From Bacillota bacterium (GTDB lineage: Bacteria; Bacillota_I; Bacilli_A; RF39; UBA660): a stretch of 64,000 nt of DNA. This document shows positions 15,067-51,695 of the stretch, one piece after another; the first letter of the stretch is position 1, and every line of letters begins with the position of its first letter. The stretch lies in the NCBI GenBank assembly GCA_015059495.1, contig SVAI01000001.1, positions 565,525 to 629,524 of the forward strand. The letters run 5' to 3'. The notes under the pieces are model-generated. The model was not told where the DNA came from and made no database searches. It saw only the letters and a list, made by a program, of their open reading frames with translations. The translations under genes were made by a program, and so were the position numbers.

Positions 15067-16374
15067 TTATTGCTTGACTGGAATGTTATCTACTTGTTGA
15101 TCATAAGTACCATCTGTTTTAATAGTAAGATATTCATTATTATGATCATCAATTTTTCTAGTAGTTGTAATATTACCACTATTATACTCTATGGTAAATT
15201 TATCTTCGTAATTACAAACTATTCCTGAGACAATATTTGCAGGCAAAGTACAATTAAATGTACCAAAAGTGCTTATTTCATCAATAAACTGTTGATATTC
15301 ACTTGCATACCTATTATTAGTTCTTGAATATTCATCAGCTGCACTACCATCAAAGTATTCATGTGGATCAAAACATAATTCAGTACCATTATTAATACAT
15401 AATTTAGAAGATAAAGTTTTAAAATCAAACAAATCATTTCTAATCTTCTTTATTTCATCACTATGCTCTTCCACACATTCATAATAACCATCAGGATCAC
15501 TTATCGAATTCAAAGCAAATTGACAAGTTCGTTCAGATGTAAAATACATATTCATTATAAAATAATATATTTTACCATCCTTTTCAATACAGCTTATGCC
15601 ATATTGTGAACACATATCAACACTAGAAAAATAATTTGTGACATCACTAAGCAATAAAAGTTTATAATAATCATTAGTGTATAAATAACTTGAATACACC
15701 TCATGTTTTAAATACGCATCAACCTTTTTATCATTATAGAATTCATCTATAGTATTCCAATCATCATCTTTAATCAAAGGTGTTGACATTGAAAAAGTAC
15801 CATCCTCTTTAGGAATCATAGTTTGTAAAGCTGTAGTAATTTCCCTTTGCATATCTTGTTCTTTAAGTAAAGAAATAACAGTATAAAATACAGTACCCTT
15901 ATCCATATCCTGATTATAATCTGTATTTAAAAAAGATATTTTCAATGTATAATTATGAGTTTGCCCAACATCTATTCCTATATTTAATCCAATAGAATCA
16001 GTACCAGTTGGACATGGAGTTTGTGCAACATTTAATCCATTATCACTTATTAATTCATATACTAAAGTATCTGTATGATAAAAATAATTAATTGTTTCAT
16101 CAAAATAAAGATCATAGTAGGCATATACATCACCAGTGTTTTTAACACTAAATGTTTTAGTAACTTGACTACCAGGAATAAAGTCTTTTGCCCATATTTT
16201 ACCACTACCATCTTCAAAAGTTATTTCCATATTACCAGTTTCAATAACATTAGCACTAGCACTTTCATTACCATTAACATAAGCAACAAAGTAAGCATAT
16301 GATGCACTTGTAACTAATGATAAAACTAATAATGCTCCAATAACAACTAATAATTTAATATATTTATTTTTCAT
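15067..16374 (-). CDS. Secreted protein with a SipW-type signal and TasA/camelysin-like N-domain, plus a Cys-rich C-terminal domain
   Basis: N-terminus ...LVTSASYAYFVAYVNGNESASANVIETGNMEITFEDGSG...PGSQVTKTFSVKNTGDV parallels the TasA/CalY signal-peptidase junction and first beta-strands. The C-terminal half has about 12 Cys. It is a paralog of the gene at 50193-51695. Confidence 0.6.
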   Translation of the reverse strand: MKNKYIKLLVVIGALLVLSLVTSASYAYFVAYVNGNESASANVIETGNMEITFEDGSGKIWAKDFIPGSQVTKTFSVKNTGDVYAYYDLYFDETINYFYHTDTLVYELISDNGLNVAQTPCPTGTDSIGLNIGIDVGQTHNYTLKISFLNTDYNQDMDKGTVFYTVISLLKEQDMQREITTALQTMIPKEDGTFSMSTPLIKDDDWNTIDEFYNDKKVDAYLKHEVYSSYLYTNDYYKLLLLSDVTNYFSSVDMCSQYGISCIEKDGKIYYFIMNMYFTSERTCQFALNSISDPDGYYECVEEHSDEIKKIRNDLFDFKTLSSKLCINNGTELCFDPHEYFDGSAADEYSRTNNRYASEYQQFIDEISTFGTFNCTLPANIVSGIVCNYEDKFTIEYNSGNITTTRKIDDHNNEYLTIKTDGTYDQQVDNIPVKQ

Positions 16375-16461
16375 GTATATCACTAACCTTGCCTTAATAA
16401 GGTTATCACAAATTATACATTTAATAAATAATCAAAATTATATTTTACACAATTATTTACA

Positions 16462-16490
16462 AACAAAAAAAAGAGCTATTAAGCTCTTGA
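16462..16490 (-). terminator. Rho-independent terminator of efp
   Basis: Hairpin aagagct-atta-agctctt overlapping the efp stop, followed by a U-run on the minus strand. Confidence 0.55.
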
Positions 16491-17039
16491 TGAATATTTT
16501 CCATCTACTGTAGAAATAATAATATGTTCACCTTGTTGAATAAATAATGGAACCTTAACTGTATAACCAGTTTCAACAGTAGCATCTTTCATTGCATTAT
16601 TTGTTGTATTACCCTTAACTGCATCAGTTGTATCAACAACTTCAAATTCAATCTTTTCAGGTAAATCTAAACCAATAATTTCACCTTCATAGAAGTTAAT
16701 TTTAATTTCAAGATTTTCTTTTAAGAATTTCTTTTCTTCTTCTAATTGTACTTCAGGTACTGAAACTTGTTCATAAGTTTCACTATCCATAAATACATAA
16801 TTATCTCCATCTTTATATAGATAAGTCATTGGTTTCTTATCGATATGTGCTTTTTCAACTTTAATAGTTGAGTTATATGATTCAACAGTAATAGCACCAG
16901 TCTTTAAGTTTCTTAATTTAACTTTAACGATTGCTGCACCTTTACCAGGTTTAACATGTTGAAATTCTTGAACTTGGCATAACTTACCATCCATAATAAC
17001 AGTCATACCATTTTTAATATCATTAATATTAACAAACAT
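16479..17039 (-). CDS. efp: Elongation factor P
   Basis: Full-length alignment to EF-P, including the KPGKGAA loop and the C-terminal GxYxSRA. Confidence 0.9.
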   Translation of the reverse strand: MFVNINDIKNGMTVIMDGKLCQVQEFQHVKPGKGAAIVKVKLRNLKTGAITVESYNSTIKVEKAHIDKKPMTYLYKDGDNYVFMDSETYEQVSVPEVQLEEEKKFLKENLEIKINFYEGEIIGLDLPEKIEFEVVDTTDAVKGNTTNNAMKDATVETGYTVKVPLFIQQGEHIIISTVDGKYSSRA

Positions 17040-17061
17040 TTATAAAACTCCCTTTCTAATA

Positions 17062-17226
17062 TTACTTAGCTTCTTTAAATATAGTATGTTTTCCACATAC
17101 TGGGCATGCTTTTTTAATTTCTAACTTTTCAGTTGTATTTTTCTTATTCTTTGGAGTAGTATAAGTAAATTTTTTACATTCACTACATTTAATTGTTACA
17201 TAAGATCTATCATCTTTTTTTGCCAT
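17062..17226 (-). CDS. rpmG: 50S ribosomal protein L33 (zinc-ribbon type)
   Basis: [54 protein letters not shown] contains four Cys in a C4 ribbon. The AGGAGG RBS is 8 nt upstream. A consensus promoter TTGTCT-17-TGgTAAAAT lies upstream at 17259-17287. Confidence 0.75.
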
Positions 17227-17304
17227 AGTTATATGCCTCCTTTTTTTACTACATAGGTATTTTACCATATAATACCCATAAAGACAAACATTTTTCTTTA
17301 ATTT

Positions 17305-17344
17305 TAATAAAAAAACAACAAAAGAAGTAGATTACTCTACTTCT
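17305..17344 (-). terminator. Terminator of the GH5 fusion gene
   Basis: Hairpin agaagtag..ctacttct overlapping the stop codon, then a U-run on the minus strand. Confidence 0.5.
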
Positions 17345-20300
17345 ATATATATATCACTCTTAATATTATTAATAGTATATGTATTACCATCTTTTATAAC
17401 ATCTAATTGATTTGATCTCACAGTTTTACCACTATTATTAGTATAAGTATAGTATACTTTAACATTTCCATTTGTATTAAATGTAAATGATCCATTATAT
17501 CCTACACTACCACTAATATTAATATTAGATGTAATACTTGAACTATATTCATTAATATCTTTATATATTAAATTTGTCTGTCCAGATAAAGCAATTACAT
17601 TATTAACCCACTCCTGTGTAGAAGAATCACCATAAATAGTAACTGGATTAATTTTATTTTTTGAAAATGTATTAGCACCAGCCATATTTGGTTGTTCTAT
17701 ATGTGGAATAACTATAGTAGTTAAATTTTCATTATTAGCCATTGTCCACTCTGGAATTCCCATTAAAGAACTACCAAATACTAACTTTTCTAAATAATGA
17801 CTAGCATTAACTACATTACCTTCATTTATATTATTAATTGTATCAGGAAGAACAATAATATAAGATTTAGAATATCCAAATGCCATAGATTTAACAGATG
17901 TTACATTACTTGGAACATACAAATAATCAACACTAAGATTTGCCAAACCATACTTACCAATTGATATATTACTATTACCCTCAAAAACAAGTTTAGTTAT
18001 TTTAAGAGGAGGACTATAACTAGCTGGTTGCATAAACATTCTTGGAACATAAGTTACTTTAGGGCCAAAAGTTAAAGTTGCACCACTTGCTGTTCCAACA
18101 TTATACATAACATAATTAGCACCAGTATTAATTGTATCCTCTCTTAAATCTTTTAGTGTTATAGAATCGATTCTAATATTTTTAACTCTATACAAATTAT
18201 AGAAAGCATATTCACCTAGTTTAGTAACATTCTCTCCAACATTTACATTAACAATACTATCTTTATATTGATACCACGGTGGTAAAGAACTTTCACTATA
18301 ATCAGCCATATCACCACTACCTGTTATATCTAATGTTGAAGTTGACGCATTATAACTCCATGAAACATCACCAGTAGTACCACCATCAATTGAAGAATAA
18401 GCAGTAATAAAATTAACATTAACGCCTGATGGTATCAAAGGTTGTAATATATTCTTAACATAATCATTCTTAACTTTAATAGTTGCATTTTTAGATACAG
18501 AAGCAAAATTTAAGAAAGTATCAGTAAATGAAACTGTAGAATTAACATTTAACGATGACATATCAATGTATTCAATATTCTTTAAGTTTCTAAACATATA
18601 ATTCATATTTTTTACATTTGTTGGATTCCAAGTAGATATATTAATATTTTTTAGTTTAGAAGATTCACCAAACACATAAGCAAGTTTATCTCCAGTCACA
18701 TCAAAATTAGTTAAATCAACAATTTCTAAAGAACTACATCCATATAACATACCATCTACACCATATACCTTAGTTACAGTATCATTAAATTTAATACTCT
18801 TTAAACTTGAGCAATTCTGGCACATACTAGAATAATGCCTATTATCTTGTAAATCAAACGAAGTTAAATCTAATTCTAATAAACTAGTATCGTTAAAAAA
18901 CATCGCATTCATATTACGAATATTTTTAGTAGCAAAATTAGTAAAATCAATTGTTCTCAAATTAGATAATTCAGCAAATAAATAATGACTATCTATTGGA
19001 GCATTTATATTACCATTAGCAGCAATTATCATATGATATCTATCGTCTTCTTCACTTGAAATTAAATATCCAATAACCGAATTATCACCTATCATAGATA
19101 AATCCCAAGTTACAACAGCATTATCAGGTACTTCTAAAACATTCTTAAATTCAATAGATATAATCTTATCTTTCCATTCACTACTACGATAATTTAATTT
19201 CTTATTAGTAGAATCACCAATCATAACACGAACGTTATAATCAAAATCATTTCTCGCAATTTTCTTATAGAATTTACCATTTTCTCTTAATACACTATTT
19301 GGTAATTTTTCATTCCAATTACCTTCTTTAGTAAATCCCAAAGACCACAGTGATGGCTCAGAGGAATAATAAGTATAACTAATATCATTGTTAAATAAGA
19401 ACCTAGCAAATTCTAAACTATGAGCATAAAATACTCTATCTTCGCTATATGGAGCATCTGAATCAGCAGCCACAGCACCCCACTCACTTATAAATAAAGG
19501 TATATTATTATCATTAGCTTTTTTTAAATTACTAATCAATGTATCAGGCATTGAATTAGCATATGCATGCATTGTATACATAATATTATCAAATGCCAAC
19601 ATTGATGATGATATAGTATCATATATATCAACAGAATATGGAACTGAAGCTAAAACAATAGCATCAGGAGATATATTTTTTATTACTGGTATTACACTAT
19701 TATTATAATTTCTAATAGTATTCCATGTCATAGATGAATCATTAGGCTCATTCCATGTTTCATATATAATTCTCTCACTATTAGGATAATGATTAGCAAC
19801 TCTTTCAAACAACTCAGATGCTTTAGTTAAATTAGGATCACTACTACCAGGATTCCAGTTTAATATTACATACATATCATTATCTATAGCGTTATCAATA
19901 GCATTATATAAATAATTAATATATTCTTCTTCATTTCCTAAATAACAATGTTCAACATAATACGGACAAGAACTACCAGAAATAAATATTCTTAGTACAT
20001 TAGATCCCCAGTTTTTTAATGTATTTAAAGATTCTTTAGAATATACATTTTCTAAATTAACAAGATTACCTTCAAGAGATGTACCAGTTAATCTAAATAC
20101 CTCATTATTTTCGTTATATAAATTAGAACCATTAACATGTAATCTACCATTATTAGATGCATAATTATCTATACTTGTTTGACATATACTTTCATCATAT
20201 ATTTGAATCTCATCATTAATAGCATTTTTTCTATAACATCTATTACTCTTTTTAATAGCAGCTTCTACTTTACCATCTTTAGTTACAACTATTTTATCAT

Positions 20301-20949
20301 CTTCATCTTTATTAGATATATCTAATTCATCAATAACATTACTACCAAGTAAACTTGATGTTTTATTGTTTTCATAATAATCATTAGCTAAAGCAATATA
20401 ACTTCTTACTAATTTTAAATCCTCTTCTTCTTTATATTCATTAATTGATACCCTAGAACTAAATTCACAACCTTTATTATCATCTTGATTAGTATTATCA
20501 TCAACAAAAGTTATAGTTAAAGTATATTCATGTTCTTGATTAACATCAATTGGACAAGCCGCAACCATCTTTGCTTCATCACCAATGTTTGATGGAACAA
20601 CACTACCATCTAAATTACTACATCCATTAATTGATGATACTATATAAACTAAATCATTTGTATCAACAAAAGTATTAACTATCTCAGAAAAATAAATATC
20701 ATATGTTGTACTTAAATTACCAACATTTTTAACTTTAAATGTTTTAGTTACACTTTGTGATGGAATAAAATTTGAAGCACTTATTCTAGGTCCATCATTA
20801 AATTCTAATCTCATAGAACCTGATGTAACAATATTTTCTTTACTATTTCCAAATACTCTTGCAGTAAAATAAGCATATGATACAAGTGTACAAACACTAA
20901 CAATAATAATTGATAATATTAGTAGTAATGCTTTTCTTTTATTGTCCAT
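17332..20949 (-). CDS. Large secreted multidomain protein: SipW-type signal + TasA-like domain + GH5 glycoside hydrolase + DUF285/BspA-type LRR repeats + beta-rich C-terminus
   Basis: N-terminus ...CTLVSYAYFTARVFGNSKENIVTSGSMRLEF...SQSVTKTFKVKNVGNL. The GH5 signatures are IIYETWNEPN (acid/base) and FISEWGA (nucleophile). Downstream are DUF285-like units (IDFTNFATKNIRNMNAMF) and BspA-like LRRs. Total length about 1205 aa. Confidence 0.7.
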   Translation of the reverse strand: MDNKRKALLLILSIIIVSVCTLVSYAYFTARVFGNSKENIVTSGSMRLEFNDGPRISASNFIPSQSVTKTFKVKNVGNLSTTYDIYFSEIVNTFVDTNDLVYIVSSINGCSNLDGSVVPSNIGDEAKMVAACPIDVNQEHEYTLTITFVDDNTNQDDNKGCEFSSRVSINEYKEEEDLKLVRSYIALANDYYENNKTSSLLGSNVIDELDISNKDEDDKIVVTKDGKVEAAIKKSNRCYRKNAINDEIQIYDESICQTSIDNYASNNGRLHVNGSNLYNENNEVFRLTGTSLEGNLVNLENVYSKESLNTLKNWGSNVLRIFISGSSCPYYVEHCYLGNEEEYINYLYNAIDNAIDNDMYVILNWNPGSSDPNLTKASELFERVANHYPNSERIIYETWNEPNDSSMTWNTIRNYNNSVIPVIKNISPDAIVLASVPYSVDIYDTISSSMLAFDNIMYTMHAYANSMPDTLISNLKKANDNNIPLFISEWGAVAADSDAPYSEDRVFYAHSLEFARFLFNNDISYTYYSSEPSLWSLGFTKEGNWNEKLPNSVLRENGKFYKKIARNDFDYNVRVMIGDSTNKKLNYRSSEWKDKIISIEFKNVLEVPDNAVVTWDLSMIGDNSVIGYLISSEEDDRYHMIIAANGNINAPIDSHYLFAELSNLRTIDFTNFATKNIRNMNAMFFNDTSLLELDLTSFDLQDNRHYSSMCQNCSSLKSIKFNDTVTKVYGVDGMLYGCSSLEIVDLTNFDVTGDKLAYVFGESSKLKNINISTWNPTNVKNMNYMFRNLKNIEYIDMSSLNVNSTVSFTDTFLNFASVSKNATIKVKNDYVKNILQPLIPSGVNVNFITAYSSIDGGTTGDVSWSYNASTSTLDITGSGDMADYSESSLPPWYQYKDSIVNVNVGENVTKLGEYAFYNLYRVKNIRIDSITLKDLREDTINTGANYVMYNVGTASGATLTFGPKVTYVPRMFMQPASYSPPLKITKLVFEGNSNISIGKYGLANLSVDYLYVPSNVTSVKSMAFGYSKSYIIVLPDTINNINEGNVVNASHYLEKLVFGSSLMGIPEWTMANNENLTTIVIPHIEQPNMAGANTFSKNKINPVTIYGDSSTQEWVNNVIALSGQTNLIYKDINEYSSSITSNINISGSVGYNGSFTFNTNGNVKVYYTYTNNSGKTVRSNQLDVIKDGNTYTINNIKSDIYIEVE

Positions 20950-26469: not shown

Positions 26470-27327
26470 TTAGTTAACTTTTTCAGTAGATAACCATACA
26501 TAGTTATCATTTTCTTTAACAAATGTAGATTTATATTTACTGATATCATCTTTATAATGATCTACTAATTTTTTAGCATTATCACCAGCTATTTGTTTAT
26601 TTAAAGTATTAGTATAATAATCTAAATTATCTATTAACTTAGTAGCTTTACTATCTGAAAATATACCATCTTCCTTTAATTTACTATTAGTATCCCTAAT
26701 AGTTAGTAAATAAGAATATACTTCTAATTTATTATCATTATATTCATAACTATCAAATACATTAACCACTTTATAATCATTAATTGTTACATCATTTCTA
26801 TTTAAATAACAATTATATATATTATCTTTAAAATAACATGTTTGATTAGCACTTATATTAAATTCATTATAAGATACATTAATATTACTACTAAAATAAT
26901 TTCTTATTTGTTCATCTAATAAATTCTTATCTATTACTTCTAAATAACATTTTTCTGGATAATTATCTTTATCTAATCCAAAACATTCATCTAATACTTC
27001 ACCTGATTTTAAAGTATCTTCTTTAGATATTAAAGTATATGCGATATATAAAACATTTTCTTTAGATATAGTATTAATATCAATATTATTTTCTTTAAAG
27101 AATATTAAATCATTAGTAGCTAAATCTCTTTTATTACTAATTGAAGTAAATTTTTCTTGTGCTAATTTATTTAAATCACTCTTATTTAATGATTTATTAA
27201 TATTTATATTTTTCATTTGAAAACTATAACTTAAAAAGAAAACACATACTAAAACTACTACTATAGCAATAGCAAAACTCAATAAATTATTATGTTGTTC
27301 TTCTTTGTTATTCATATCAATAGTCAA
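26470..27327 (-). CDS. Hypothetical membrane-anchored protein
   Basis: N-terminal TM helix followed by a Y/N-rich extracytoplasmic region. Confidence 0.35.
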   Translation of the reverse strand: MTIDMNNKEEQHNNLLSFAIAIVVVLVCVFFLSYSFQMKNININKSLNKSDLNKLAQEKFTSISNKRDLATNDLIFFKENNIDINTISKENVLYIAYTLISKEDTLKSGEVLDECFGLDKDNYPEKCYLEVIDKNLLDEQIRNYFSSNINVSYNEFNISANQTCYFKDNIYNCYLNRNDVTINDYKVVNVFDSYEYNDNKLEVYSYLLTIRDTNSKLKEDGIFSDSKATKLIDNLDYYTNTLNKQIAGDNAKKLVDHYKDDISKYKSTFVKENDNYVWLSTEKVN

Positions 27328-35748: not shown

Positions 35749-35819
35749 AATTATCACCAATAATATTGTATCTTATTTTTAAATAATTGTAAAATAAAAA
35801 GACACAATTATCTTGTATC

Positions 35820-36543: not shown

Positions 36544-37302
36544 TTATTTAATCATAAATAATACTTTAATAATATAATCAAACTGTTCCATAAATATAAA
36601 TATTATAAATACACTTATGATTAAAAATGGACCAAAAGGAATTTCCTTTTCTTGTTTTTTTAATACATAATAAGTAGCATAAGGCAAAGCCATAAAAGAA
36701 CCTAGAACTATAGATGTAAGACCAAGTCTAATACCAAGTACTACACCCATAAATGATGCTAACTTAACATCACCCCATCCAAGTGATTCTCTTTTAAAAA
36801 CTTTATCTCCTGCTAACTTTATTAATAGTAAGAATAATACTAATAATACTCCACTAATTAAAGCATTAATAAATCCATTTAATCCAAAGTATATAAACTT
36901 TAATACCAATATTAATATTACACATATATATAATGGATAATCTAATATAACTAAATATTTAAAATCACTTACAAATATAATTAGTACTAAAGAAGCAATT
37001 ATTAAATATGCATATAATTCATAACTAAATCCATATAAATAATATCCTAAGGCAAATATAATACCAAGTGATATTTCACTTAATAAATTAACTATAGATA
37101 TCTTATTCTTACAATATCTACATTTACCACCTAAAAATATATATGAAAATATAGGTATTAAATCCAATGCTTTTAAAGTTGTATGACAATTATCACAATA
37201 TGATCTACCTTTAACAATAGATATATCATTAGATAATCTAAGTGCTAAGCATGTATAAAACGATGCTAAAACTGCACCAAGTACAAAAAATAATACTAAC
37301 AT
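36544..37302 (-). CDS. Type IV prepilin peptidase (A24 family; PilD/ComC-like)
   Basis: N-terminal tetra-Cys zinc finger (CDNCHTTLKALDLIP...CRYCKNKI) followed by a polytopic peptidase domain with the conserved acidic residues. Confidence 0.75.
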   Translation of the reverse strand: MLVLFFVLGAVLASFYTCLALRLSNDISIVKGRSYCDNCHTTLKALDLIPIFSYIFLGGKCRYCKNKISIVNLLSEISLGIIFALGYYLYGFSYELYAYLIIASLVLIIFVSDFKYLVILDYPLYICVILILVLKFIYFGLNGFINALISGVLLVLFLLLIKLAGDKVFKRESLGWGDVKLASFMGVVLGIRLGLTSIVLGSFMALPYATYYVLKKQEKEIPFGPFLIISVFIIFIFMEQFDYIIKVLFMIK

Positions 37303-37309
37303 ACTAACC

Positions 37310-40024: not shown

Positions 40025-40058
40025 TAAATAAAAGAAAAGAATAGCATATTTGCTATTC
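40025..40058 (-). terminator. Terminator of the DUF285 gene at 40058-42673
   Basis: Hairpin gaatagca-tatt-tgctattc overlapping the TAG stop, then a U-run on the minus strand. Confidence 0.5.
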
Positions 40059-42673
40059 TATGTAGTCTTTAAAGTAAAATATCCCGGACTTGATGTTCCA
40101 CCATCCACTTTAGCATATTTTGCAGTATCCGCAGTAGATGAATAAGAAGTTCCAGCACTACCCCTAAGATAATTATGTTTACTAAACACAATCTTAGTTA
40201 ATAAACTTTCCGGAACACTCCATGAACTTCCAACATATATAGTTCTCATATTATTAATATTATAGAACATTCCATCTATTTTAGTAACTTTATTAATATT
40301 AAAAGAAGATAGATCAAGTGTTGTTAATGCTGAGCAGCCATTAAACATATTATTCATACTAGTTACAATTTCAGTGTTAAAACTACTAATATTTAAATTA
40401 CTTAAACTACTCATATCTTTAAACATAGCTTCCATATATTTTGTCTTAGCAGTATTAAAATGACTTAAATCAAGGGCAGTTATTAGAGTTACACCACTGA
40501 ACATTTCAACCATATTTGTTACATTAGATGTATTAAAACTACTAATATTTAAACTTGTTAAACCACTCATACCACTTAACATATTTCTCATATTAGTTAC
40601 TTTCGCAGTATTAAAATGGCTTAAATTTAAACTACTAATCTTATTATCATTTCTAAACATATATGACATGTCAGTTACCCTTGAGGTGTCAAAACTACTA
40701 ATATTCAAATTAGTTAAATTAGTCATACCACTAAACATGTAATGCATATCACGCACTTTAGACGTATTAAAATTTCTTAAATCCAAACTTGTAATTTTAG
40801 ATAATCCTTCAAACACTCCTTGCATATATATAACATTAGAAGTATTAAAATTAGATACATCAAGTGAATTTAAATTTTTACAATAACTAAACATTTCCGT
40901 CATATTGGTTACATTCGAAGTATCTAAAAAACTTAAATCAATATGAGTTATGCCACTATGTGAAAACATTCTATTCATGCTAGTTACATTTGATGTATTA
41001 AAATTAGATAAATCAACAGTTTCAATATTTTCACAAAATTCAAACATAGCAGTCATGTTAATTACATTTGAAGTATTTATACGGCTTAAGTTAATACTTT
41101 GTAATTTACTCATTCTAGAAAACATATAAGACATATCTATAACGTTAAAAGTGTCAAAATTAGAAATATCAAGATCAGTTAAACCAGAAGAGTCATAAAA
41201 CATATAAGACATATCAGTAACATTTGAGGTATTAAAACTACTTACATTTAAATCAATTAACTTATAAGTATATTCAAACATACTCGACATACTCTTAACA
41301 TTTGAGGTATCAAAATTTAATAAATTTAATTCTTTAATTTCACTACAATAATAAAACATATATTTCATATCTTCCACACTAGATGTAACAAAACTACTCA
41401 CATCTAATGTACTGAGATTGGTTAGCCCCATAAACATACCAGCCATATTAGTTACATTTGAAGTATCAAAATTATGCAAATTCAATTGAGTTAATTGAGG
41501 AGACAAGTCATAACATCCAGAATTACAACCAATTTCAGCGCCATTAAAATGATGAAAAAGATAACCTGAATTACTATTACTATCTTCTAAAGTTGTACCT
41601 GTGTAAACAGCAAACATAAGATTCATATCTACAGTTTCAGAAGTATTAATATGACTTAAATCTATGTTATATAGATTTGTTAAATTTCTAAACATACTTG
41701 ATGCATCTCTATTTAGCATTACTTCATTAGCTTTAGAATATAAATATATAGTTCCTTCATCATACCAAGCAATCACTTCTACATCTGAATGTTCATCAGA
41801 AACAACTCTATTATTTTCAGGAATAACAACTTCACCCTGAACAAATTCAATATTAATAATATTAGTATCTATAATAAATTCATACATATTTGCTGCCATA
41901 AAATCATTGTAAGATCTTAAAAATAGCTCATAATATTCGCTATAGTCATAAAATGGATTTTGAGCTTCTTCAGAATTAAAATACTCATATTCTTCTTCAT
42001 AATCACTCTTTACCTCATTATATTCATCTAAAAATTCTTGAGAAGGAACATCTCCAGCTAATTCTTTAATAATTTGATTAAATTCAGATCCCTTAACCAA
42101 AGTAGCAATGTCACTTGTTTTTTTATTAACAGTATTTACTGTAACCTTTGAATAAAAAGTTTTTTCTTCGACTTGATTAGCTTTTGCATCATAATCTATC
42201 CACATAATAAGATTAAAAGATTTACTTCGACTTGGTTGTAATATACCGGTACTAATAGTCTTAGATGATATTGCATTATCATTAACATAAATACTTGAAC
42301 TATTTTCAGATAAAGTTCCTAATATTTTAGAAGCGCCACCATCTAGTTTATATCTAACAGCATTAAGATCCATTGTTGAACCGGTTAATGTTTCAATATT
42401 AATATAATAGTCCATAGTTTGATTACAAATATTAGTTATTGAAAAAGTATATGGTTCAAGCTTTTCTGCCTTACTTTCTTTCATAGGTAAAGCGGATAGT
42501 AATCTAATATCATTTGCATCTTCAAAAGCAACTTTAAAACAATTAGTTCCAAAAGCATTAGAACCATCTTGTGATACATTAAAAATATAGTACGCATAAG
42601 ATAAACCAATAGAAATACTTAAAATCAAAAGTATTCCAATAACAAGAATTAAAACTCTCTTTTTTTTATTCAT
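40058..42673 (-). CDS. Secreted DUF285/BspA-like repeat protein (871 aa) with a SipW-type signal and TasA-like N-terminal domain
   Basis: N-terminus MNKKKRVLILVIGILLILSISIGLSYAYYIFNVSQDGSNAFGTNCFKVAF...PYTFSITNICN...NLIMWIDYDA. More than 20 tandem repeats of about 22 aa (LDxSxFNTSNVTxMxxMF). C-terminus ...RGSAGTSYSS...YAKVDGG..SPGYFTLKTT. Confidence 0.7.
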   Translation of the reverse strand: MNKKKRVLILVIGILLILSISIGLSYAYYIFNVSQDGSNAFGTNCFKVAFEDANDIRLLSALPMKESKAEKLEPYTFSITNICNQTMDYYINIETLTGSTMDLNAVRYKLDGGASKILGTLSENSSSIYVNDNAISSKTISTGILQPSRSKSFNLIMWIDYDAKANQVEEKTFYSKVTVNTVNKKTSDIATLVKGSEFNQIIKELAGDVPSQEFLDEYNEVKSDYEEEYEYFNSEEAQNPFYDYSEYYELFLRSYNDFMAANMYEFIIDTNIINIEFVQGEVVIPENNRVVSDEHSDVEVIAWYDEGTIYLYSKANEVMLNRDASSMFRNLTNLYNIDLSHINTSETVDMNLMFAVYTGTTLEDSNSNSGYLFHHFNGAEIGCNSGCYDLSPQLTQLNLHNFDTSNVTNMAGMFMGLTNLSTLDVSSFVTSSVEDMKYMFYYCSEIKELNLLNFDTSNVKSMSSMFEYTYKLIDLNVSSFNTSNVTDMSYMFYDSSGLTDLDISNFDTFNVIDMSYMFSRMSKLQSINLSRINTSNVINMTAMFEFCENIETVDLSNFNTSNVTSMNRMFSHSGITHIDLSFLDTSNVTNMTEMFSYCKNLNSLDVSNFNTSNVIYMQGVFEGLSKITSLDLRNFNTSKVRDMHYMFSGMTNLTNLNISSFDTSRVTDMSYMFRNDNKISSLNLSHFNTAKVTNMRNMLSGMSGLTSLNISSFNTSNVTNMVEMFSGVTLITALDLSHFNTAKTKYMEAMFKDMSSLSNLNISSFNTEIVTSMNNMFNGCSALTTLDLSSFNINKVTKIDGMFYNINNMRTIYVGSSWSVPESLLTKIVFSKHNYLRGSAGTSYSSTADTAKYAKVDGGTSSPGYFTLKTT

Positions 42674-42686: not shown

Positions 42687-44987
42687 TCATACAGTCTTTA
42701 AGGTTAAGTACCCAGGTTTATTATTAGCTGGATCATCTACACGAGCATAAGTTCCGGAAGTTTTACTAGAATTATATACAGTACCAGCTCCACCAACAAT
42801 ATTAGTTAAATTTTTAAAAACATTTGAAAACTTAGATAAAGTAGAACTTTTCCAATTAGCACCAACATAAATAGTTTTCAAACTACTACCTGAACTAGAG
42901 CCCTCAAACATACTACTTCCCTGCGTAACACTACTTGTATCAAAACTACTTAAATCTAAAGTCACAATACTATCCATTTTTGCAAACATAGAAGACATAC
43001 TTGTAACTTTTGAAGTATCGAAACTACTTACATTCAAATTAACCAATCCACTAGCGCCATTGAACATGCTTTCCATAATTCTAACATTAGATGTATTAAA
43101 AAAACTTAAATCAAGAGACTCTAACCTTGTTAAATCACTAAACATTTCATTCATATATATAACATTAGATGTATCAAAATGATCTCCAAAATTAATTGAA
43201 GTTAACAAAGACATTTTAGAAAACATTTTCATCATACTTTGTACACTCGAAGTATTAAAATATGATAAATCTAATGTTGTTAACTTACCACATTCGCTAA
43301 ACATACCCGACATATCAATTACACTAGAAGTATTAAATGAGGAAAAATCAATTGATTCTAGATTACAACCTTTAAACATATAATCCATATAAAGTACATT
43401 AGACGTATCAAAATTAGAAATATCTAGCATTGACATATTTAAACCAGAAAACATATTACCCATATCAACAACTTTTGATGTATTAAAACTGCTAACATCT
43501 AACGAGGTTATTGATGAATTTGCAAACATATAGCGCATACCTTTAACATTCGATGTATCAAAATTGCTTATATCAACTGAAGGTACATGTAATTTATAAA
43601 ACATACACGACATATTTGTTACATTCGAAGTATCAAATTTACTTAAATCCAATTGAAATTGCCATGATGAACTATCAAACATATGCGCCATATTTACTAC
43701 CTGTGATGTATCAAAATTTGACAAATCTGGTGCATAAAGGCCATTAATATTTGAAAACATAAATGACATATCTGTTACACTTGATGTATCAAAATGGCTT
43801 ACATCTATTTTTGAAAACGAAGAATTATAAAACATTCCCATCATATTTTTAACATTTGAAGTATCAAAATCTGACAATTCTAAATCAGTTAAATAATAAT
43901 TCTTATAAAACATAAATGACATATTTTCTGAATAAGAAGTATCAAATTTACTAAAATCAATATCTTCTAATACTTGTAACGCTGCAAACATATAAGAAGA
44001 ATCAATAGTTGCAAATTTTTCATCAACAGTATATATATAAATAGTGTCATCATCTAACCACATTATTATATCGTTTTTAGAATCATCACTAGATATTTTT
44101 TCACTCTGCATTTCAGTAATATTTTCTGGTAAAACATCAGCCATAACAATATGTTTAACTACTCTATCGCTATGAGTCCAATAAATACTTTCAACATTAG
44201 TATTATAAGTTAACGCAAGTTCATCACAACTATTGTTTGCTGATGCAATAATGGAAATATACTCATTCCAATCTATGCTGCCATTACTTATTGATGAGTA
44301 ATCTCCATTACAAATGGCGATTGACAGTTCCCTTTTAGTATTATAATCATTTATTTCATCTTGAGTTGGATTAAAGCCAGCCAACTTTTTTATAGCCTTA
44401 TTAATTTGAAATCCTGATGCTAATTTTGAATTCAATTCAGCTCTTGCACTAACCACAACCTTAGATACAAACATTTTATTTCCAGATTGTTCATATGTTG
44501 CATCTTCATCAATCCATGCTTTAATTTGAAACGATTTTTCTTCACCCGCTGATATATAGCCTGTTCCAACTTTTTTTGATGAGATTGCATTACTATTAGC
44601 ATAATAATCTAGTCCATTATCTTCTAAGCTACCCAGAATCGCTGACTCATCATTATCTAATTTAACTCTTATTGCATCCAAATCCATAGTATTATTCTCT
44701 AAAGTTTCAATATTTATATTATAGGCCATATCATAACTACATACATTTTTTATAGAAAAGGAAAATGGCACAATCTCTTGTGCTTCTTCTTCACTAATAG
44801 GAATAGCATCACCAATATTTAATGCATCCCCTTCGTTAAAAGATAATCTAAAACATTCACCAACAATAGCATTATAACCACTTTGAGATATACCAAACAT
44901 ATAATAAGCATAAGAAGCACTAACAATAAAACATAGCACAAGCATTATACTTAAACACAACAAAAAGATCTTATACTTACCCTTCAT
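42687..44987 (-). CDS. Secreted DUF285/BspA-like repeat protein (766 aa) with a SipW-type signal and TasA-like N-terminal domain
   Basis: N-terminus MKGKYKIFLLCLSIMLVLCFIVSASYAYYMFGISQSGY...PFSFSIKNVC...QIKAWIDEDA. DUF285 repeats follow. C-terminus GGAGTVYNSS..YARVDDPANNKPGYLTLKTV. It is separated from the previous gene by only 13 nt. Confidence 0.7.
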   Translation of the reverse strand: MKGKYKIFLLCLSIMLVLCFIVSASYAYYMFGISQSGYNAIVGECFRLSFNEGDALNIGDAIPISEEEAQEIVPFSFSIKNVCSYDMAYNINIETLENNTMDLDAIRVKLDNDESAILGSLEDNGLDYYANSNAISSKKVGTGYISAGEEKSFQIKAWIDEDATYEQSGNKMFVSKVVVSARAELNSKLASGFQINKAIKKLAGFNPTQDEINDYNTKRELSIAICNGDYSSISNGSIDWNEYISIIASANNSCDELALTYNTNVESIYWTHSDRVVKHIVMADVLPENITEMQSEKISSDDSKNDIIMWLDDDTIYIYTVDEKFATIDSSYMFAALQVLEDIDFSKFDTSYSENMSFMFYKNYYLTDLELSDFDTSNVKNMMGMFYNSSFSKIDVSHFDTSSVTDMSFMFSNINGLYAPDLSNFDTSQVVNMAHMFDSSSWQFQLDLSKFDTSNVTNMSCMFYKLHVPSVDISNFDTSNVKGMRYMFANSSITSLDVSSFNTSKVVDMGNMFSGLNMSMLDISNFDTSNVLYMDYMFKGCNLESIDFSSFNTSSVIDMSGMFSECGKLTTLDLSYFNTSSVQSMMKMFSKMSLLTSINFGDHFDTSNVIYMNEMFSDLTRLESLDLSFFNTSNVRIMESMFNGASGLVNLNVSSFDTSKVTSMSSMFAKMDSIVTLDLSSFDTSSVTQGSSMFEGSSSGSSLKTIYVGANWKSSTLSKFSNVFKNLTNIVGGAGTVYNSSKTSGTYARVDDPANNKPGYLTLKTV

Positions 44988-45163: not shown

Positions 45164-47005
45164 CTATTCATCTGGTATATCAGAAAAATATCCAGGTTGT
45201 CCTTCTTTATCTATAACAGCATATGTTACATCAACATTTCTAAAATTGTAAGTAGTTCCATTTTGACCTACTAAATTATTACATGAAGAGAACATACTAT
45301 CACTTGTAGTTATATTAGTATTATCCCATTTATCACTTACATATATAGTAGTTAAAGCACTCATATTAGAGAACATATGAGAAGTAGTAGTAACATTACT
45401 TGTATTAAACATTGTTAAATTTAACGTTTTAAGCTTATATGCTCCATCAAACATATAACCCATATCAGTTACATTTGATGTATTAAATTTTATACCTAAA
45501 TATATATCAGAAGCAGAACAATATCTAAACATATATGCCATATTAGTAACTTTTGATGTATCAAATTTATCCCCTAAGTCTAAATTACTAATAGAATTTA
45601 ATCCATAGAACATATTAGACATATCAGTTACATTTGATGTATTAAATTTATCCCCTAAATCTAAAGAAGTTAATTTATTTAATGAATTAAACATATGATT
45701 CATATCAGTTACATTTGAAGTATCAAACTTATCTCCAAAATTTAAAGTAGTTAACTTAACAGCATTACCAAACATAGTAGCCATATTAGTAACTTTTGAT
45801 GTATCAAACTTATCTCCTAAATCTAATGAAGTTATAGCTTTTAATCCACTAAACATATTAGACATATCAGTTACATTTGAGGTATCAAAATAATTACCTA
45901 AATCTAAACTAGTAATAACGTTTAACCCTGAAAACATAGATTTCATAGTGTTTACATTTGATGTATCAAACTTATCTCCTAAATCTAACTCTTGTAAACT
46001 ACTTGATCCAAAGAACATATAAGCCGTATTATTCATATTTGATGTATCGAAATTATCACCTAGATTTAAATGCTCTAATGCAGCATTAAGTGCAAACATA
46101 GTTTGTGCATTTACTACCTTAGAACTATCAAATTCACTAACATCAATATTTTTTATAGCAGACATTCTATAAAATATTTGATTTGAAGAACGATTATAGA
46201 ATATTTTACTTGCTTCAGAATAATAATAAACTATATTAGTATCACTATCTAACCATGCATAAACAGGATAACGTGAAGTACTTAAAGCAATATCAGTTGT
46301 ATTAACTCCTTCTGGAGGTGGAGTTAAACTCTTTTCAAACCCAACTATTGTTTCATCATAAGTAGTGGATTCATTAACGTCAGGATTTACCAATTTTTTT
46401 ATTCTAACATTAACAACAGAACCACCAGCTAATTCAGCTTCTTTATATGCAGGATTTAAAGTTGAAGCAACAACAACTTTAGATTCAAATGTTTTATCAG
46501 CACTTTGTTCAACAGTAGAATCTTCATCAACCCATAATTTTAAATTAAATGTTTTACTACTATTACCCATCAAAGAACCATTAGAAATAGTCTTAGATAA
46601 TAATACATTTTGATTAACAAAAGTAGCAGGATCATTATCTTCAATAGAACCTAAAATTTGTGAAAAATGATTATCTAATTTAAATCTAATTGCATTAATA
46701 TCTATATCACTAGTATTTAATTCCTCTATATTAATTTTATAATCAATAGATGAATTACATACATTACTAACAGTAAATGTATATGGCACTAAATCACCAA
46801 TATCTCTTTCACTCATAGGATAAGAATTTTCTAAACTAATAGCATTACTATCAGTATATTCTATTCTAAAACAATCACTGCTAAAAGTATTGTTTCCTTC
46901 TTGAGAAACACTAAAAATATAAAATGCATAAGTTAATCCAATTATTAAAGATAAAACTAGTAAAATACCAACTGATAATAATATAATCTTATTTTTCTTC
47001 TTCAT
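45164..47005 (-). CDS. Secreted DUF285/BspA-like repeat protein (about 613 aa) with a SipW-type signal and TasA-like N-terminal domain
   Basis: N-terminus MKKKNKIILLSVGILLVLSLIIGLTYAFYIFSVSQEGNN...PYTFTVSNVCN...NLKLWVDEDS. The repeats here are a variant form (LDLGDKFDTSNVTDMSNMF). C-terminus ...GQNGTTYNF..YAVIDKEGQPGYFSDIPDE. Confidence 0.7.
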   Translation of the reverse strand: MKKKNKIILLSVGILLVLSLIIGLTYAFYIFSVSQEGNNTFSSDCFRIEYTDSNAISLENSYPMSERDIGDLVPYTFTVSNVCNSSIDYKINIEELNTSDIDINAIRFKLDNHFSQILGSIEDNDPATFVNQNVLLSKTISNGSLMGNSSKTFNLKLWVDEDSTVEQSADKTFESKVVVASTLNPAYKEAELAGGSVVNVRIKKLVNPDVNESTTYDETIVGFEKSLTPPPEGVNTTDIALSTSRYPVYAWLDSDTNIVYYYSEASKIFYNRSSNQIFYRMSAIKNIDVSEFDSSKVVNAQTMFALNAALEHLNLGDNFDTSNMNNTAYMFFGSSSLQELDLGDKFDTSNVNTMKSMFSGLNVITSLDLGNYFDTSNVTDMSNMFSGLKAITSLDLGDKFDTSKVTNMATMFGNAVKLTTLNFGDKFDTSNVTDMNHMFNSLNKLTSLDLGDKFNTSNVTDMSNMFYGLNSISNLDLGDKFDTSKVTNMAYMFRYCSASDIYLGIKFNTSNVTDMGYMFDGAYKLKTLNLTMFNTSNVTTTSHMFSNMSALTTIYVSDKWDNTNITTSDSMFSSCNNLVGQNGTTYNFRNVDVTYAVIDKEGQPGYFSDIPDE

Positions 47006-47242: not shown

Positions 47243-47253
47243 CTGTTAAAATT

Positions 47254-47283: not shown

Positions 47284-47289
47284 AAATAA

Positions 47290-47840: not shown

Positions 47841-47848
47841 AATTATAA

Positions 47849-48532: not shown

Positions 48533-48545
48533 ATTTGTATCTTCT

Positions 48546-49130
48546 CTATTCATTATAATTAACCTCTTTTAAATAAGTATCTATCTTTAATTTAAATGCA
48601 TTAATTTTTTCTACAGTCCAATAATCTTCAGCTTTAATATTATTTCTATTAATAGATGTTTCATCATCAAAATGAATTATTTTACCATCTTTAACAAATA
48701 TTAATGCAGGAGTATATATTCTAGTTTCCCCAGTATCTTGCTTATATAAATAATTAGATAATAATCTTTCTAACTCTCTATAATACTTAGTAGATGTACC
48801 TCTATCTCTTTGTAAATCATAATAATATACTATTTTAGTATTATTAGCTTTTAATACATCATATAAATACTTAATATAATATTTAGACCAATCATTATTA
48901 GCAAATCCTAAAAATACTATACCAGTTTTATTCTTAATAACATCTACTACTTCAGATCCATATGAATATTTAAACATATTATTTTGATCAATATTATATT
49001 CATATGCAAATCTTTGTGCATCAGTTAAATCTTTTTCTTCTTTAAAATCTTTTTCTCCTAAATAAATAAATGCTCCAATTAATACAGCAAATAATACAAA
49101 ATATATAGCCATTCTTAAATATTTTTTCAT
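48546..49130 (-). CDS. Hypothetical membrane-anchored protein, possibly thioredoxin-fold but without CxxC
   Basis: TM anchor, then a GIVFLGFANNDWSKYY segment resembling a thioredoxin active-site region that has lost both Cys. Confidence 0.35.
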   Translation of the reverse strand: MKKYLRMAIYFVLFAVLIGAFIYLGEKDFKEEKDLTDAQRFAYEYNIDQNNMFKYSYGSEVVDVIKNKTGIVFLGFANNDWSKYYIKYLYDVLKANNTKIVYYYDLQRDRGTSTKYYRELERLLSNYLYKQDTGETRIYTPALIFVKDGKIIHFDDETSINRNNIKAEDYWTVEKINAFKLKIDTYLKEVNYNE

Positions 49131-49204
49131 AACTTCTACTTCCATTCTTTATATATATTTAATTTTACACGAATTTAACTTTTTAGTCAATTTTAAGACT
49201 ATAT

Positions 49205-49236
49205 TAACAAAATAAGAAGTGTATATTTTACACTTC
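49205..49236 (-). terminator. Terminator of nfo
   Basis: Minus-strand hairpin agaagtgtaaaatatacacttct plus a U-run, directly after the nfo stop. Confidence 0.5.
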
Positions 49237-50139
49237 TTATTCATAATACTTCTTAATATCACTATGTAAATTATTATTTAGCGTTTTATTTCTAATCATA
49301 TCTATTTCAAATTTATATGGTGGATATATTCTTGTTTCATCATTAACATCCTCACCAGTATAAGGTGTTTCAAGTATCTTAGGAATATTTTCTAACTTAG
49401 TATTATATATAACATTTAATAATGTATCAAATCCAATAGTGCCATATCCTATATTTTCATGTCTATCTTTATGAGATGCTATTACATTCTTACTATCATT
49501 AACATGAACACATTTAATTCTATCAATACCAATTAATTTATCAAAATTAGATAAATATTCATCAAACTTTTTCAAATCATATCCAGCATCATTTAAATGA
49601 CATGTATCAATACATACACCTAATCTTTCATGATTAACACTATCTATTACTTCCTTTAATTCTTCAGTAGTAATACCCATTTCATTACCTTTACCAGCCA
49701 TAGTTTCAAGTAATATATTACATGTATTATCACTTTTAAATACTTTATTTAATGTATCAATAATATTAGATATTGCTTCTTCTCTAGTTTCATTAACTGC
49801 AGAACCTGGATGAAGTACCATATTTTTAACACCCAATCTATCACATCTATCTAATTCATTTTTAATAAAATTAATAGCAAATTCATGTTTATCACTATCA
49901 TTACTAGCAGGATTAACAATATATGGAGCATGACATATAACATTATTAATATCAATATCATTATCTTTCATTAATTTTAAAGCTTGCATAGTTAATCTAT
50001 CATCTAATTCACTACGTCTAGTATTTTGTGGTGCACCAGTATAAAACATAAATGTATTAGCACCATATGAAATAGCTTCTTTAACCGAACCCAGTAATTG
50101 ATCAGATTTAAAACCTACATGAGAACCTATTATTAACAT
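49237..50139 (-). CDS. nfo: Endonuclease IV (AP endonuclease, xylose-isomerase-like TIM barrel)
   Basis: MLIIGSHVGF... with the conserved metal ligands (HAPY, HPGS, CIDTCH, HVNDSK, ILETP). The start was moved to MLIIGSH; the track ORF overlaps the upstream gene. Confidence 0.85.
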   Translation of the reverse strand: MLIIGSHVGFKSDQLLGSVKEAISYGANTFMFYTGAPQNTRRSELDDRLTMQALKLMKDNDIDINNVICHAPYIVNPASNDSDKHEFAINFIKNELDRCDRLGVKNMVLHPGSAVNETREEAISNIIDTLNKVFKSDNTCNILLETMAGKGNEMGITTEELKEVIDSVNHERLGVCIDTCHLNDAGYDLKKFDEYLSNFDKLIGIDRIKCVHVNDSKNVIASHKDRHENIGYGTIGFDTLLNVIYNTKLENIPKILETPYTGEDVNDETRIYPPYKFEIDMIRNKTLNNNLHSDIKKYYE

Positions 50140-50192
50140 ATTAATCACCAAATTAATTATAACATAAAAAAAGATACCTAAGTATCTTTTTG

Positions 50193-51695
50193 TTACCAAC
50201 TCATTCCACCATTTTCACATAGACCACTACCATCACTATAAACAGAGCACGATTCAAAATTAAATTTTTCATGATAATAGTCATTTGTCTGACAATAAGT
50301 AGTACTAGCACCACCTACATTTAAAAGTTGTCTTTGTTCTTCACAAATTTCCATAGAATCATATGGAATAAAAGATTTAACATGAGCTTTCCAAACTCCA
50401 TTCTCTAAATAACACTGTGGAGTAACAAGAGACCCCATAAATCCTTTTCTTTCCATACACCTATTATAATTATCAAAATCTTGATCAAATATTACATATG
50501 GATAATAAGATAATGTATATTCACTAACAGATACTTTTTCATATCCATAAGTAATATATTCATAATCCGCACTAAGGCAACCAAATCTTTGCAAACCATA
50601 TATTTCGTATGAACAAGTAAATGGCTTATAAGAATTAACTTCATCATTAAACGCTTGAGTTATAGGTCCAAAAGTATGATAAGTATCATAATAATCTTCA
50701 TCTTCACTACGATTATAATAAGGTCGTTTACCAAAACAGAATTCATCACCATTATTATAAATGCAAACCTCTGACTCAAGACCTTGATAACCAACAATCA
50801 TGTCTTCTCCTTCGTCACTTACATGAACAGCAGCACAATCTCCACCATATTCTTCAAATAAATCTTCATTTTTACTCATACACTCGGACAAGGAATAAAA
50901 CTTTTCATCATTATCATAATACTCATAATAATATTGACCATTTTCTTCTTTACAATCTTCATAATACATTTGAGTACACTCATCTAAAGTTGGAAGATTT
51001 TCACTCCTAAAATGCCTTACATATACATCCTTTAAATTAGTATAATACGCTATAGCATCTTGCTTTAAATATACTTTACGATTAGTTTTACTAATAAAGT
51101 CACTTAAACTATTACCAGATTTATTCATATCATATTTATCTTGTGATGTAACTAAGAATTTAGATAAAACCCTAGTAGTATCATATGTTTTAATTAAATT
51201 AACACTAAATTCAAACTTAGCACCTTGGTTATAATCTTGATTATGATTTTTAGCTAAGAATGTTACTTTTAATGTATAATTATGAGTTTGTCCAACGTCA
51301 ATACCAACATTAATAACAAACTGACCATTCACAGTTGGACATTCTCTTTGTGCAACATTAGCACCATTATCACTGATTAATTCACATACCAATTCATCAG
51401 TGTGGTCAAAAGTATTAACAATATCATTTAGATAAATATCATATAAAGCATATACATTACCTGTATTAGTAACACTAAACTTCTTTTCAATAAAATCCCC
51501 AGGAAGCATATTCCCAGCTATACCTTCTACACTACCATCTTCATAAGTAACTTCCATATTACCTGTTGTAATAACATTAGCATTAGCCTCACTATTAACA
51601 CTAGCAGTAAAATAAGCATAAGAAGAAACAGAAATAGTTATAACAATAGCGATAGCTACTATTACTACAAGAGGCTTAAAATATTTATTATTCAT
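50193..51695 (-). CDS. Secreted protein with a SipW-type signal and TasA/camelysin-like N-domain, plus a Cys/Tyr/acidic-rich C-terminal domain (paralog of 15067-16374)
   Basis: N-terminus ...ISVSSYAYFTASVNSEANANVITTGNMEVTYEDGSV...PGDFIEKKFSVTNTGNV...HNYTLKVTFL is co-linear with 15067-16374 (…HNYTLKISFL…). The C-terminal 300 aa have about 16 Cys. Confidence 0.6.
   Translation of the reverse strand: MNNKYFKPLVVIVAIAIVITISVSSYAYFTASVNSEANANVITTGNMEVTYEDGSVEGIAGNMLPGDFIEKKFSVTNTGNVYALYDIYLNDIVNTFDHTDELVCELISDNGANVAQRECPTVNGQFVINVGIDVGQTHNYTLKVTFLAKNHNQDYNQGAKFEFSVNLIKTYDTTRVLSKFLVTSQDKYDMNKSGNSLSDFISKTNRKVYLKQDAIAYYTNLKDVYVRHFRSENLPTLDECTQMYYEDCKEENGQYYYEYYDNDEKFYSLSECMSKNEDLFEEYGGDCAAVHVSDEGEDMIVGYQGLESEVCIYNNGDEFCFGKRPYYNRSEDEDYYDTYHTFGPITQAFNDEVNSYKPFTCSYEIYGLQRFGCLSADYEYITYGYEKVSVSEYTLSYYPYVIFDQDFDNYNRCMERKGFMGSLVTPQCYLENGVWKAHVKSFIPYDSMEICEEQRQLLNVGGASTTYCQTNDYYHEKFNFESCSVYSDGSGLCENGGMSW

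Follow-up and report, generated by a model that had tools for sequence, protein, structure and literature searches.

Seven genes in a 64-kb stretch of contig SVAI01000001.1 (Bacillota bacterium, assembly GCA_015059495.1, positions 565,525 to 629,524; hereafter the window) encode paralogous exported surface or matrix proteins of one overall build: an N-terminal signal peptide ending in S-Y-A, which serves as an address, a domain that we call the head, and a C-terminal cargo. They belong to a real, large and unannotated family, whose architecture is common in gut bacteria of this kind and yet undescribed. One type of head has moderate to good support as a divergent, minimal domain of the TasA/CalY/BsaA superfamily; the other is a sister of the first within that superfamily, by transitive support only. 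The best single explanation of the family is that the heads act as TasA-type donor-strand subunits displaying their cargo, although we would give this reading slightly less than an even chance.

The seven open reading frames (ORFs), each denoted here by its lower coordinate, lie on the minus strand with the ATG starts given in the preliminary description of this DNA, and most are preceded by an AGGAG/GGAGG-like ribosome-binding site. That description placed the family at 15067-51695, a span which omits the member at 3335-5218 that it also listed. Hidden Markov models (HMMs) made from homologues pick out these seven ORFs and no others in the window (E-values between 7e-58 and 4e-70), which excludes chance. 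The cargo is as had been claimed: arrays of DUF285/PARCEL repeats in four genes, a glycoside hydrolase of family 5 (GH5) with DUF285 and LRR_5 repeats in one, and a Cys-rich domain in two. Each protein has a single, N-terminal hydrophobic segment; an LPxTG motif, a C-terminal membrane segment and a second hydrophobic segment are absent from all seven.

The N-terminal part had been described as one and the same module, with the motifs T-G-x-M and P-G-x-x-V-T-K-x-F-x-V-x-N-x-G. A signal ending in S/T-Y-A and a domain of about 150-165 residues are indeed common to all seven proteins, but the domain falls into two subfamilies that are some 20-25% identical, and the motifs hold in only one of them. 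We refer to the subfamily that carries them as type A (15067, 17332 and 50193). The other, type B (3335, 40058, 42687 and 45164), has D-C-F and P-Y-T-F-x-I-x-N-x-C at the corresponding places, together with a pair of Cys residues that is invariant across 85 sequences. The alignment of the two types by hhalign (97.5%, E 5e-12, 142 columns) extends over the whole domain, and we therefore conclude that they are homologous. Type B has no match to any curated family in Pfam or NCBIfam; its sequence suggests a disulfide-bearing sister family of type A.

The address consists of about three Lys or Arg residues, a hydrophobic core with a median length of 18 residues, G or S at position -5, and S/T-Y-A at positions -3 to -1; in the seven proteins of the window the next two residues are mostly aromatic. 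Among 154 family sequences, S or T is found at -3 in 152, Y or F at -2 and A, S or G at -1 in every case, G or S at -5 in 130, and an aromatic residue (Y, F or W) at +2 in 151. These counts are partly circular, since the motif used to locate the site preset the positions from -3 to +2 (S/T/A/G at -3, Y/F at -2, A/G/S at -1); the motif itself occurs in 154 of 155 sequences. Nowhere in the module is conservation higher than at S-Y-A (3.9 bits per column), which the sequence identifies as a putative signal-peptidase site. Cleavage is predicted after residue 27, the position known from TasA and BsaA, except in the GH5 protein, where it would fall after residue 26. The family also matches the signature of the TasA junction, T-W-A↓A-F (the arrow marks the cut), that is, S or T, an aromatic residue and A before the cut, and any residue followed by an aromatic one after it. 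In TasA, the Phe at P2' blocks the Escherichia coli enzyme, hence the reliance of TasA on SipW (PMC10269814), and F29 is a key donor-strand residue in the fibre (PMC9674648). The SipW-type signal of the preliminary description therefore stands as far as the shared aromatic signature at -2 and +2 is concerned, but TIGR04088 is reached only below its cut-off: the best score is 16.5 bits (in 50193) against a cut-off of 19, and at E <= 0.1 the model matches 2/16 type A homologues and none of type B.

A Lys-rich, hydrophobic signal ending in F-S-Y-A (or S-Y-S) occurs on headless proteins as well, at 14681-17797 and 17853-20339 in the flanking locus L036 and at 26470-27327 in the window. These carriers are large LRR_5 and GH5+DUF285 proteins and one 285-residue ORF. 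Signal and head are thus separable, and the S-Y-A signal is a general address in this organism. Three homologues, P0003 (268 residues), P0139 and P0154, have a Lys/Thr-rich extension of 40-70 residues ahead of the hydrophobic segment, which is atypical for a cleaved signal and may reflect a mis-called start codon.

The same N-terminus could instead be an uncleaved type II membrane tether, with S-Y-A-Y-Y as an aromatic belt and the head as a passive spacer or stalk through the wall. AlphaFold2 draws a confident, unbroken helix over residues 3-33 that crosses the motif; the uncharged stretch runs from about K6 to about D36, some 30 residues; there is no LPxTG motif, lipobox or C-terminal membrane segment to provide another anchor, nor a dedicated peptidase gene nearby; and a Tyr near the end of the helix is found in other membrane-anchored proteins of the window too. 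Yet the restriction to small residues only at -3 and -1, with G or S at -5 in 130/154, is the pattern of a signal-peptidase site and not of an anchor. Moreover, it is S-Y-A on which conservation peaks, the hydrophobic core has a median of only 18 residues, heads exist that have no cargo to tether, and the head is never internal or in tandem, unlike usual spacer domains. We regard a permanent tether as unlikely.

The relationship to TasA/camelysin that had been proposed for the heads is supported by sequence for type A; for type B, which has no direct match, the support is transitive, via type A. The Peptidase_M73 model (PF12389, cut-off 22.5 bits) scores 26.6 bits in 15067 and 27.0 in 50193, and falls below the cut-off in 17332 (17.7). 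At E <= 0.1 it matches 16/16 type A homologues, with a best E-value of 5.8e-10, and of the type B proteins none of the four in the window and none of 85 homologues. The BsaA model TIGR04090 gives sub-threshold matches in 8/16 type A homologues (best in the window 17.6 bits, against a cut-off of 60), and the TasA equivalog NF046066 matches 5/16, all below its cut-off. When type A is compared by hhalign with 117 TasA/CalY proteins, the match is 88.8% over 43 columns with the signal peptide removed, and 94.8% (E 5e-8) with the signal peptide included; the latter alignment, made at a low threshold of alignment confidence (-mact 0.05), is co-linear over 167 columns and extends to the last strands. 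The head lacks a TasA insert of about 70 residues in this comparison. Conversely, when the window and related loci are translated in six frames and the resulting 1,811 ORFs are ranked with a TasA-family HMM, only type A members come out at the top.

It is important to ask whether this resemblance might arise without common descent, that is, whether the head is a lineage-specific immunoglobulin (Ig)-like domain, serving for example as an aid to folding or export, that recalls TasA only through its signal peptide and the motif 'PGD..T.TF.V.N.G'. The hmmscan alignment to Peptidase_M73 indeed spans only profile positions 9-77 of 196, namely the signal peptide and the first strands, and part of the Pfam and hhalign signal is owed to the signal peptide and to this generic Ig-type motif. 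The motif, of about 20 residues, also matches tandem repeats in giant actinobacterial proteins. Searches against the TasA chains in the PDB, which have no signal peptide, were empty, the profile searches of PDB sequences with a mixed profile and with a type A profile returning no TasA match, and type B yields no direct TasA signal in Pfam, NCBIfam or hhalign. Against this stand the hhalign match that persists once the signal peptide is removed, its co-linear extension to the last TasA strands when the signal peptide is kept, the specificity of the TasA HMM for type A among the 1,811 ORFs, and the fact that three independent curated models (PF12389, TIGR04090 and NF046066) indicate one superfamily. 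Considering both sides, we think it improbable that there is no real relationship to TasA.

Predicted structures do not separate these possibilities. The type B head is modelled with a mean predicted local distance difference test (pLDDT) score of 86.6, with a helix at 3-33, low confidence at 34-47 and a sandwich at 48-183; the full-length type A model has a pLDDT of 77.5 and is disordered at residues 24-47. Foldseek finds nothing significant in the PDB, a result in favour of the Ig-like reading. In a structure ranking among 48,164 chains, the TasA fibre 8aur_A comes first for type B and fifth for type A, but the ranking is non-discriminating. The fold similarity between the N-domains and TasA, which the preliminary description had proposed to check, is weak.

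The module is widespread. The preliminary description had called for a survey of other genomes, and fusions of the N-domain to DUF285 or GH5 are found there and are not rare. By exhaustive HMMER profile search, on which our count of the family is based (a word-indexed homologue search gave only 3 and 8 fragments), it is present in 7,803 cluster representatives, of which 4,077 match at E <= 1e-10. The head profile is also matched by 16-36 short stretches in each of several giant proteins (P0013, P0041, P0146 and others; 2,000-6,400 residues). These stretches carry the motif TYTFTVTNTGNV with a period of about 109-113 residues, which is generic Ig-repeat similarity, and the profile-search count is therefore inflated. 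Nearly all matches are proteins of 400-1200 residues with one copy of the head at residues ~12-190, and each of the ~140 non-giant top matches has one head, which begins somewhere within residues 3-44. Its position is thus exclusively N-terminal. The cargo varies: among 85 type B proteins, 31 carry DUF285 and 31 Listeria-Bacteroides repeats, followed by leucine-rich repeats (LRRs), GH5 and others. The genome matches are all to gut metagenome-assembled genomes (MAGs) that bear the labels Tenericutes, Bacilli or Acholeplasmatales; they come from rumen, rabbit, mouse and human, and each has several paralogues. Two more members lie just past the upper end of the window, at 5081-6598 and 6695-7993 of locus L037; one has a type A head (HMM E 2e-62), and the other a third, divergent head with the junction S-Y-S↓M-Y, which matches type A at 96% by hhalign. 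Together with the seven in the window, there are therefore at least nine paralogues within about 75 kb.

Heads also exist on their own. Two MAGs encode cargo-less, stand-alone heads of 188-189 residues (L030 10001-10570 and L031 9995-10561) in a syntenic position, flanked by rplS and by pdp, the gene for pyrimidine-nucleoside phosphorylase. The two are 54% identical, whereas their flanking genes are nearly identical, and so the stand-alone head is evolving fast; its retention at a syntenic site implies a function for the head by itself.

How might such a head work? Characterised TasA-superfamily proteins all polymerise, the strand that follows the cleavage site being inserted into the next subunit. 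In BsaA the donor strand comprises residues 28-38 and is disordered in monomer models; the post-cleavage segment of our heads is likewise unpacked or of low confidence in both monomer models (34-47 in type B, 24-47 in type A). We favour the donor-strand reading because several features fit it: the head is always N-terminal, the strand after the cut is hydrophobic and is unpacked in the models, stand-alone heads exist, and no other anchor is present. On this reading, Sec would export the precursor, and a peptidase that accepts an aromatic residue at P2', either a SipW-like enzyme or the lineage's general one, would then cleave it behind S-Y-A. The freed N-terminal strand (Y-Y/F-I-F-x-V-S-Q...N) would complement the sandwich of another head, cargo-bearing or stand-alone, and heads linked in this way would build up oligomers or fibres, by which adhesins and enzymes would be kept at the surface of the cell.

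Several observations weigh against donor-strand exchange, beginning with the gaps in the homology evidence set out above and with the single helix at residues 3-33, which also fits an uncleaved anchor. The +1 to +12 segment, where the highest conservation had been expected, has 2.0 bits per column, compared with 2.6 for the sandwich. The family genes form no operon and are dispersed among housekeeping genes. There is no sipW-like gene in the window, as the preliminary description had already stated; nor did phmmer and regular-expression searches find a SipW-like ORF in the flanks of about 20 kb or in 33 related loci (~455 kb), the query being the authentic Bacillus subtilis SipW from the tapA-sipW-tasA operon (L035 2365-2937). 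Only one signal peptidase turned up in those loci, an ordinary P-type signal peptidase I in L022, and no signal peptidase of the endoplasmic-reticulum/archaeal type (TIGR02228) occurs in the ~105 kb examined of the ~1.25-Mb genome. A tapA-like gene or a cargo-less subunit is likewise missing from the window, from its flanks and from the vicinity of members in the 33 related loci. Finally, we know of no precedent for a fibre with a cargo of 250-1000 residues on every subunit.

Scattered genes are readily accommodated if the head needs no partner genes, as would be the case for a cleaved, monomeric anchor whose sandwich binds peptidoglycan, secondary wall polymer or lipoglycan non-covalently, in the manner of SLH, CWB2 or WxL, without polymerising. 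A constant module beside variable cargo, in many paralogues per genome, is also what one sees with wall-binding modules. The head, however, has no sequence match to known wall-binding families, and it is always at the extreme N-terminus, to which known wall modules are not confined. Its sequence relation points instead to TasA-type subunits, the characterised ones of which all polymerise. We assign wall binding a low probability.

The donor-strand reading can be taken a step further. Heads of different paralogues and cargo-less heads might plug into one another and heteropolymerise into a cargo-bearing surface fibre or mesh, which would be the main means of attaching surface proteins in wall-bearing, reduced-genome gut Bacilli (the MAGs labelled Tenericutes or Bacilli), in place of sortase/LPxTG or lipid anchoring. 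We consider this extension possible but doubtful.

Comparison with known systems helps to define what is and is not familiar here. With TasA and CalY the type A proteins share predicted cleavage after residue 27, aromatic residues at -2 and +2, a 'tG.l.l' strand, 'PGD..tK.F.v.N.G', terminal strands with 'NQ..kG..F', and a beta-sandwich or jelly-roll, the latter from predicted models in our case. However, TasA is a single domain of 261 residues encoded in a tapA-sipW-tasA operon, whereas here a minimal core of about 150 residues is fused to 250-1000 residues of cargo, with no sipW nearby and with scattered genes. Similarly, PF12389 members are single-domain proteins of about 100-350 residues, while those in the window have 435-1205. 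BsaA, BsaB and BsaC of Clostridium perfringens are distant TasA homologues that also have their signal at residues 1-27, and BsaC is a larger, cargo-type protein with a von Willebrand factor A domain. There, cargo and subunit are separate proteins and not fused, and the sipW-bsaA-bsaB-bsaC operon has no equivalent here. An N-E-K isopeptide triad like that of BsaA could not be traced: our heads have an invariant Asn after the cleavage site, and type A has an invariant Lys in 'TKxF', but P-Y stands at the site of this Lys in type B, and none of the Glu residues is invariant. BsaA with a C-terminal FAST fusion is still exported and located at the surface, and a subunit of the TasA family can therefore tolerate cargo at its C-terminus.

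The nearest parallels in concept are TapA of B. subtilis, which is predicted to supply TasA with a strand, and AbpB of Pyrobaculum, which Wang et al. compared to FimH. In each, a TasA-type N-terminal strand or domain is combined with extra domains, possibly as an anchor or adhesin. But in both of those systems one accessory protein accompanies a major subunit, whereas here there are at least nine cargo-bearing paralogues, and no major subunit is seen in the region examined. The tip adhesins FimH and PapG differ in lineage, orientation and machinery: they depend on a periplasmic chaperone and an outer-membrane usher, and the adhesin domain of FimH is N-terminal, in contrast to the C-terminal cargo of our proteins. 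AbpX, CanA and the archaeal threads (100-350 residues) are small sandwich subunits, of about 160 residues when mature, and AbpX has a predicted disulfide, as does type B; these subunits, however, are archaeal and stand alone, and a TIGR02228 peptidase is often encoded beside them. From the side of the cargo, the PARCEL lipoproteins of Mycoplasma and Listeria (for example the Mbov_0838 family) have the same repeat arrays (TIGR02167 with E-values down to 6e-125, and partial matches to NF045896), but these are anchored by an N-terminal lipobox, in place of which our proteins have an S-Y-A signal and a TasA-like head. A recent survey of the TasA superfamily (a preprint) was restricted to proteins of 100-350 residues, and fusions such as these were therefore excluded from it. 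The claim that such fusions are undescribed holds up, in that we found no paper linking TasA or SipW to DUF285, BspA or PARCEL fusions.

We also considered and rejected three other assignments. The members are not sortase substrates, having neither LPxTG nor a C-terminal membrane segment. They are not lipoproteins, for they lack a lipobox although the host makes lipoproteins (ORF 862-1425 carries an LVSGC lipobox). Nor do they begin like type IV pilins: there is no G↓F..E motif, and true pilin-like ORFs are separate genes.

The individual members, all on the minus strand, are as follows. The four with type B heads carry DUF285/PARCEL arrays and pass the curated cut-offs for these repeats, with 191-335 bits for PF03382 and 158-406 bits for TIGR02167. 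The first (3335-5218, 627 residues) has its predicted signal peptide at 5138-5218 (residues 1-27, ...SSYA↓LW) and its head at ~4649-5137, as judged by the type B HMM (E 5e-59), with DUF285 at E 1.8e-68 and TIGR02167 at E 3e-91. A long array belongs to 40058-42673 (871 residues; signal peptide 42593-42673, ...LSYA↓YY; head ~42104-42592). It is followed by 42687-44987 (766 residues; signal peptide 44907-44987, ...ASYA↓YY; head ~44418-44906; DUF285 E 9e-84, type B HMM E 2e-59) and 45164-47005 (613 residues; signal peptide 46925-47005, ...LTYA↓FY; head ~46436-46924; DUF285 E 4e-57, type B HMM E 1e-64). These four DUF285 proteins (3335, 40058, 42687 and 45164) also share a C-terminal tail, roughly G-x-x-G-T-x-Y...Y-A-x-V/I-D...PGYF(T/S), and its core G.GT...Y...PG is seen in the consensus of 85 homologues as well.

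The largest type A protein, at 17332-20949 (1205 residues), has its signal peptide at 20872-20949 (...VSYA↓YF, predicted cleavage after residue 26) and its head at ~20437-20871, followed by GH5 at 19357-20112, DUF285 and BspA-type LRR_5. The supporting E-values are 1.3e-35 for Cellulase, 3e-19 for LRR_5 and 1.5e-13 for DUF285. Its GH5 domain (PF00150) scores 123.7 bits over residues 280-531 and retains the two motifs with the catalytic Glu residues (NEP at 400, SEWG at 488), while its repeats score 51 bits for PF03382 and 37 bits for TIGR02167. An identical protein in one MAG is named 'BspA family leucine-rich repeat surface protein', that is, by its cargo only. The other two type A proteins end in Cys-rich domains that have no family match: 15067-16374 (435 residues; signal peptide 16294-16374, ...ASYA↓YF; head ~15859-16293) has 8 Cys in this domain, and 50193-51695 (500 residues; signal peptide 51615-51695, ...SSYA↓YF; head ~51180-51614) has 14. 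The latter assignment is based on Peptidase_M73 (27.0 bits), TIGR04088 (16.5 bits), TIGR04090 (E 0.0024) and the type A HMM (E 2e-69).

The host of these genes is a wall-bearing, uncultured member of the Bacilli with a small genome of about 1.25 Mb. The window has a G+C content of ~25%, and its minus strand holds almost all of the genes. GC skew is uniformly negative throughout, from -0.24 to -0.42, in a genome that is strongly strand-biased; given this skew and the orientation of nearly all genes, the window lies within one replichore. The family is surrounded by genes of the core chromosome: mraZ-rsmH-ftsL-PBP-mraY, efp, glyS, recD2, alaS and the genes for L21/L27, and further frr, nfo, lysS, radC and parC/parE-like genes.

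Parts of a type IV pilus system are found at 36544-38929, 51803-53578 and 58880-59479, namely an A24 prepilin peptidase, a PilC/T2SS-F protein and an N_methyl pilin; an ORF of 591 residues with a pilin-like KGFVFVE start is directly upstream of member 50193-51695. In C. perfringens, type IV pilus genes are needed for the secretion of the TasA-like Bsa proteins (PMC11580942), a dependence to which the presence of such genes in this window offers a likeness. At 35173-35760 there is a membrane-anchored thioredoxin-like protein with a CSAC motif, which could form extracytoplasmic disulfides in the Cys pair of type B and in the Cys-rich cargo; the ORF at 48546-49145 has a similar layout without a family match. 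Finally, a membrane-anchored protein of 429 residues at 33874-35163 ends in an NPCBM/NEW2 domain (E 4e-9) and has a plain anchor with no S-Y-A motif; it is a putative surface glycan-binding protein.

If strand exchange does take place, the family would be the first system of the TasA type to place functional cargo, such as adhesin repeats or a glycosidase, on the fibre subunit, and would offer a new explanation of the way in which uncultured gut Bacilli, for all their tiny genomes, equip the cell surface. A function would also be assigned to an unannotated domain, type B, whose cluster representatives number in the thousands and for which neither Pfam nor NCBIfam has a model; and surveys of the TasA superfamily, which have so far been filtered for short proteins, would be widened. 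Should heads of different paralogues plug into one another, the family would represent a natural, modular protein-display system on the TasA fold, and a head that assembles by itself and accepts large fusions at its C-terminus could serve as a scaffold for protein display. Even without polymerisation, the S-Y-A signal and head together are a lineage-wide sorting module that deserves annotation.

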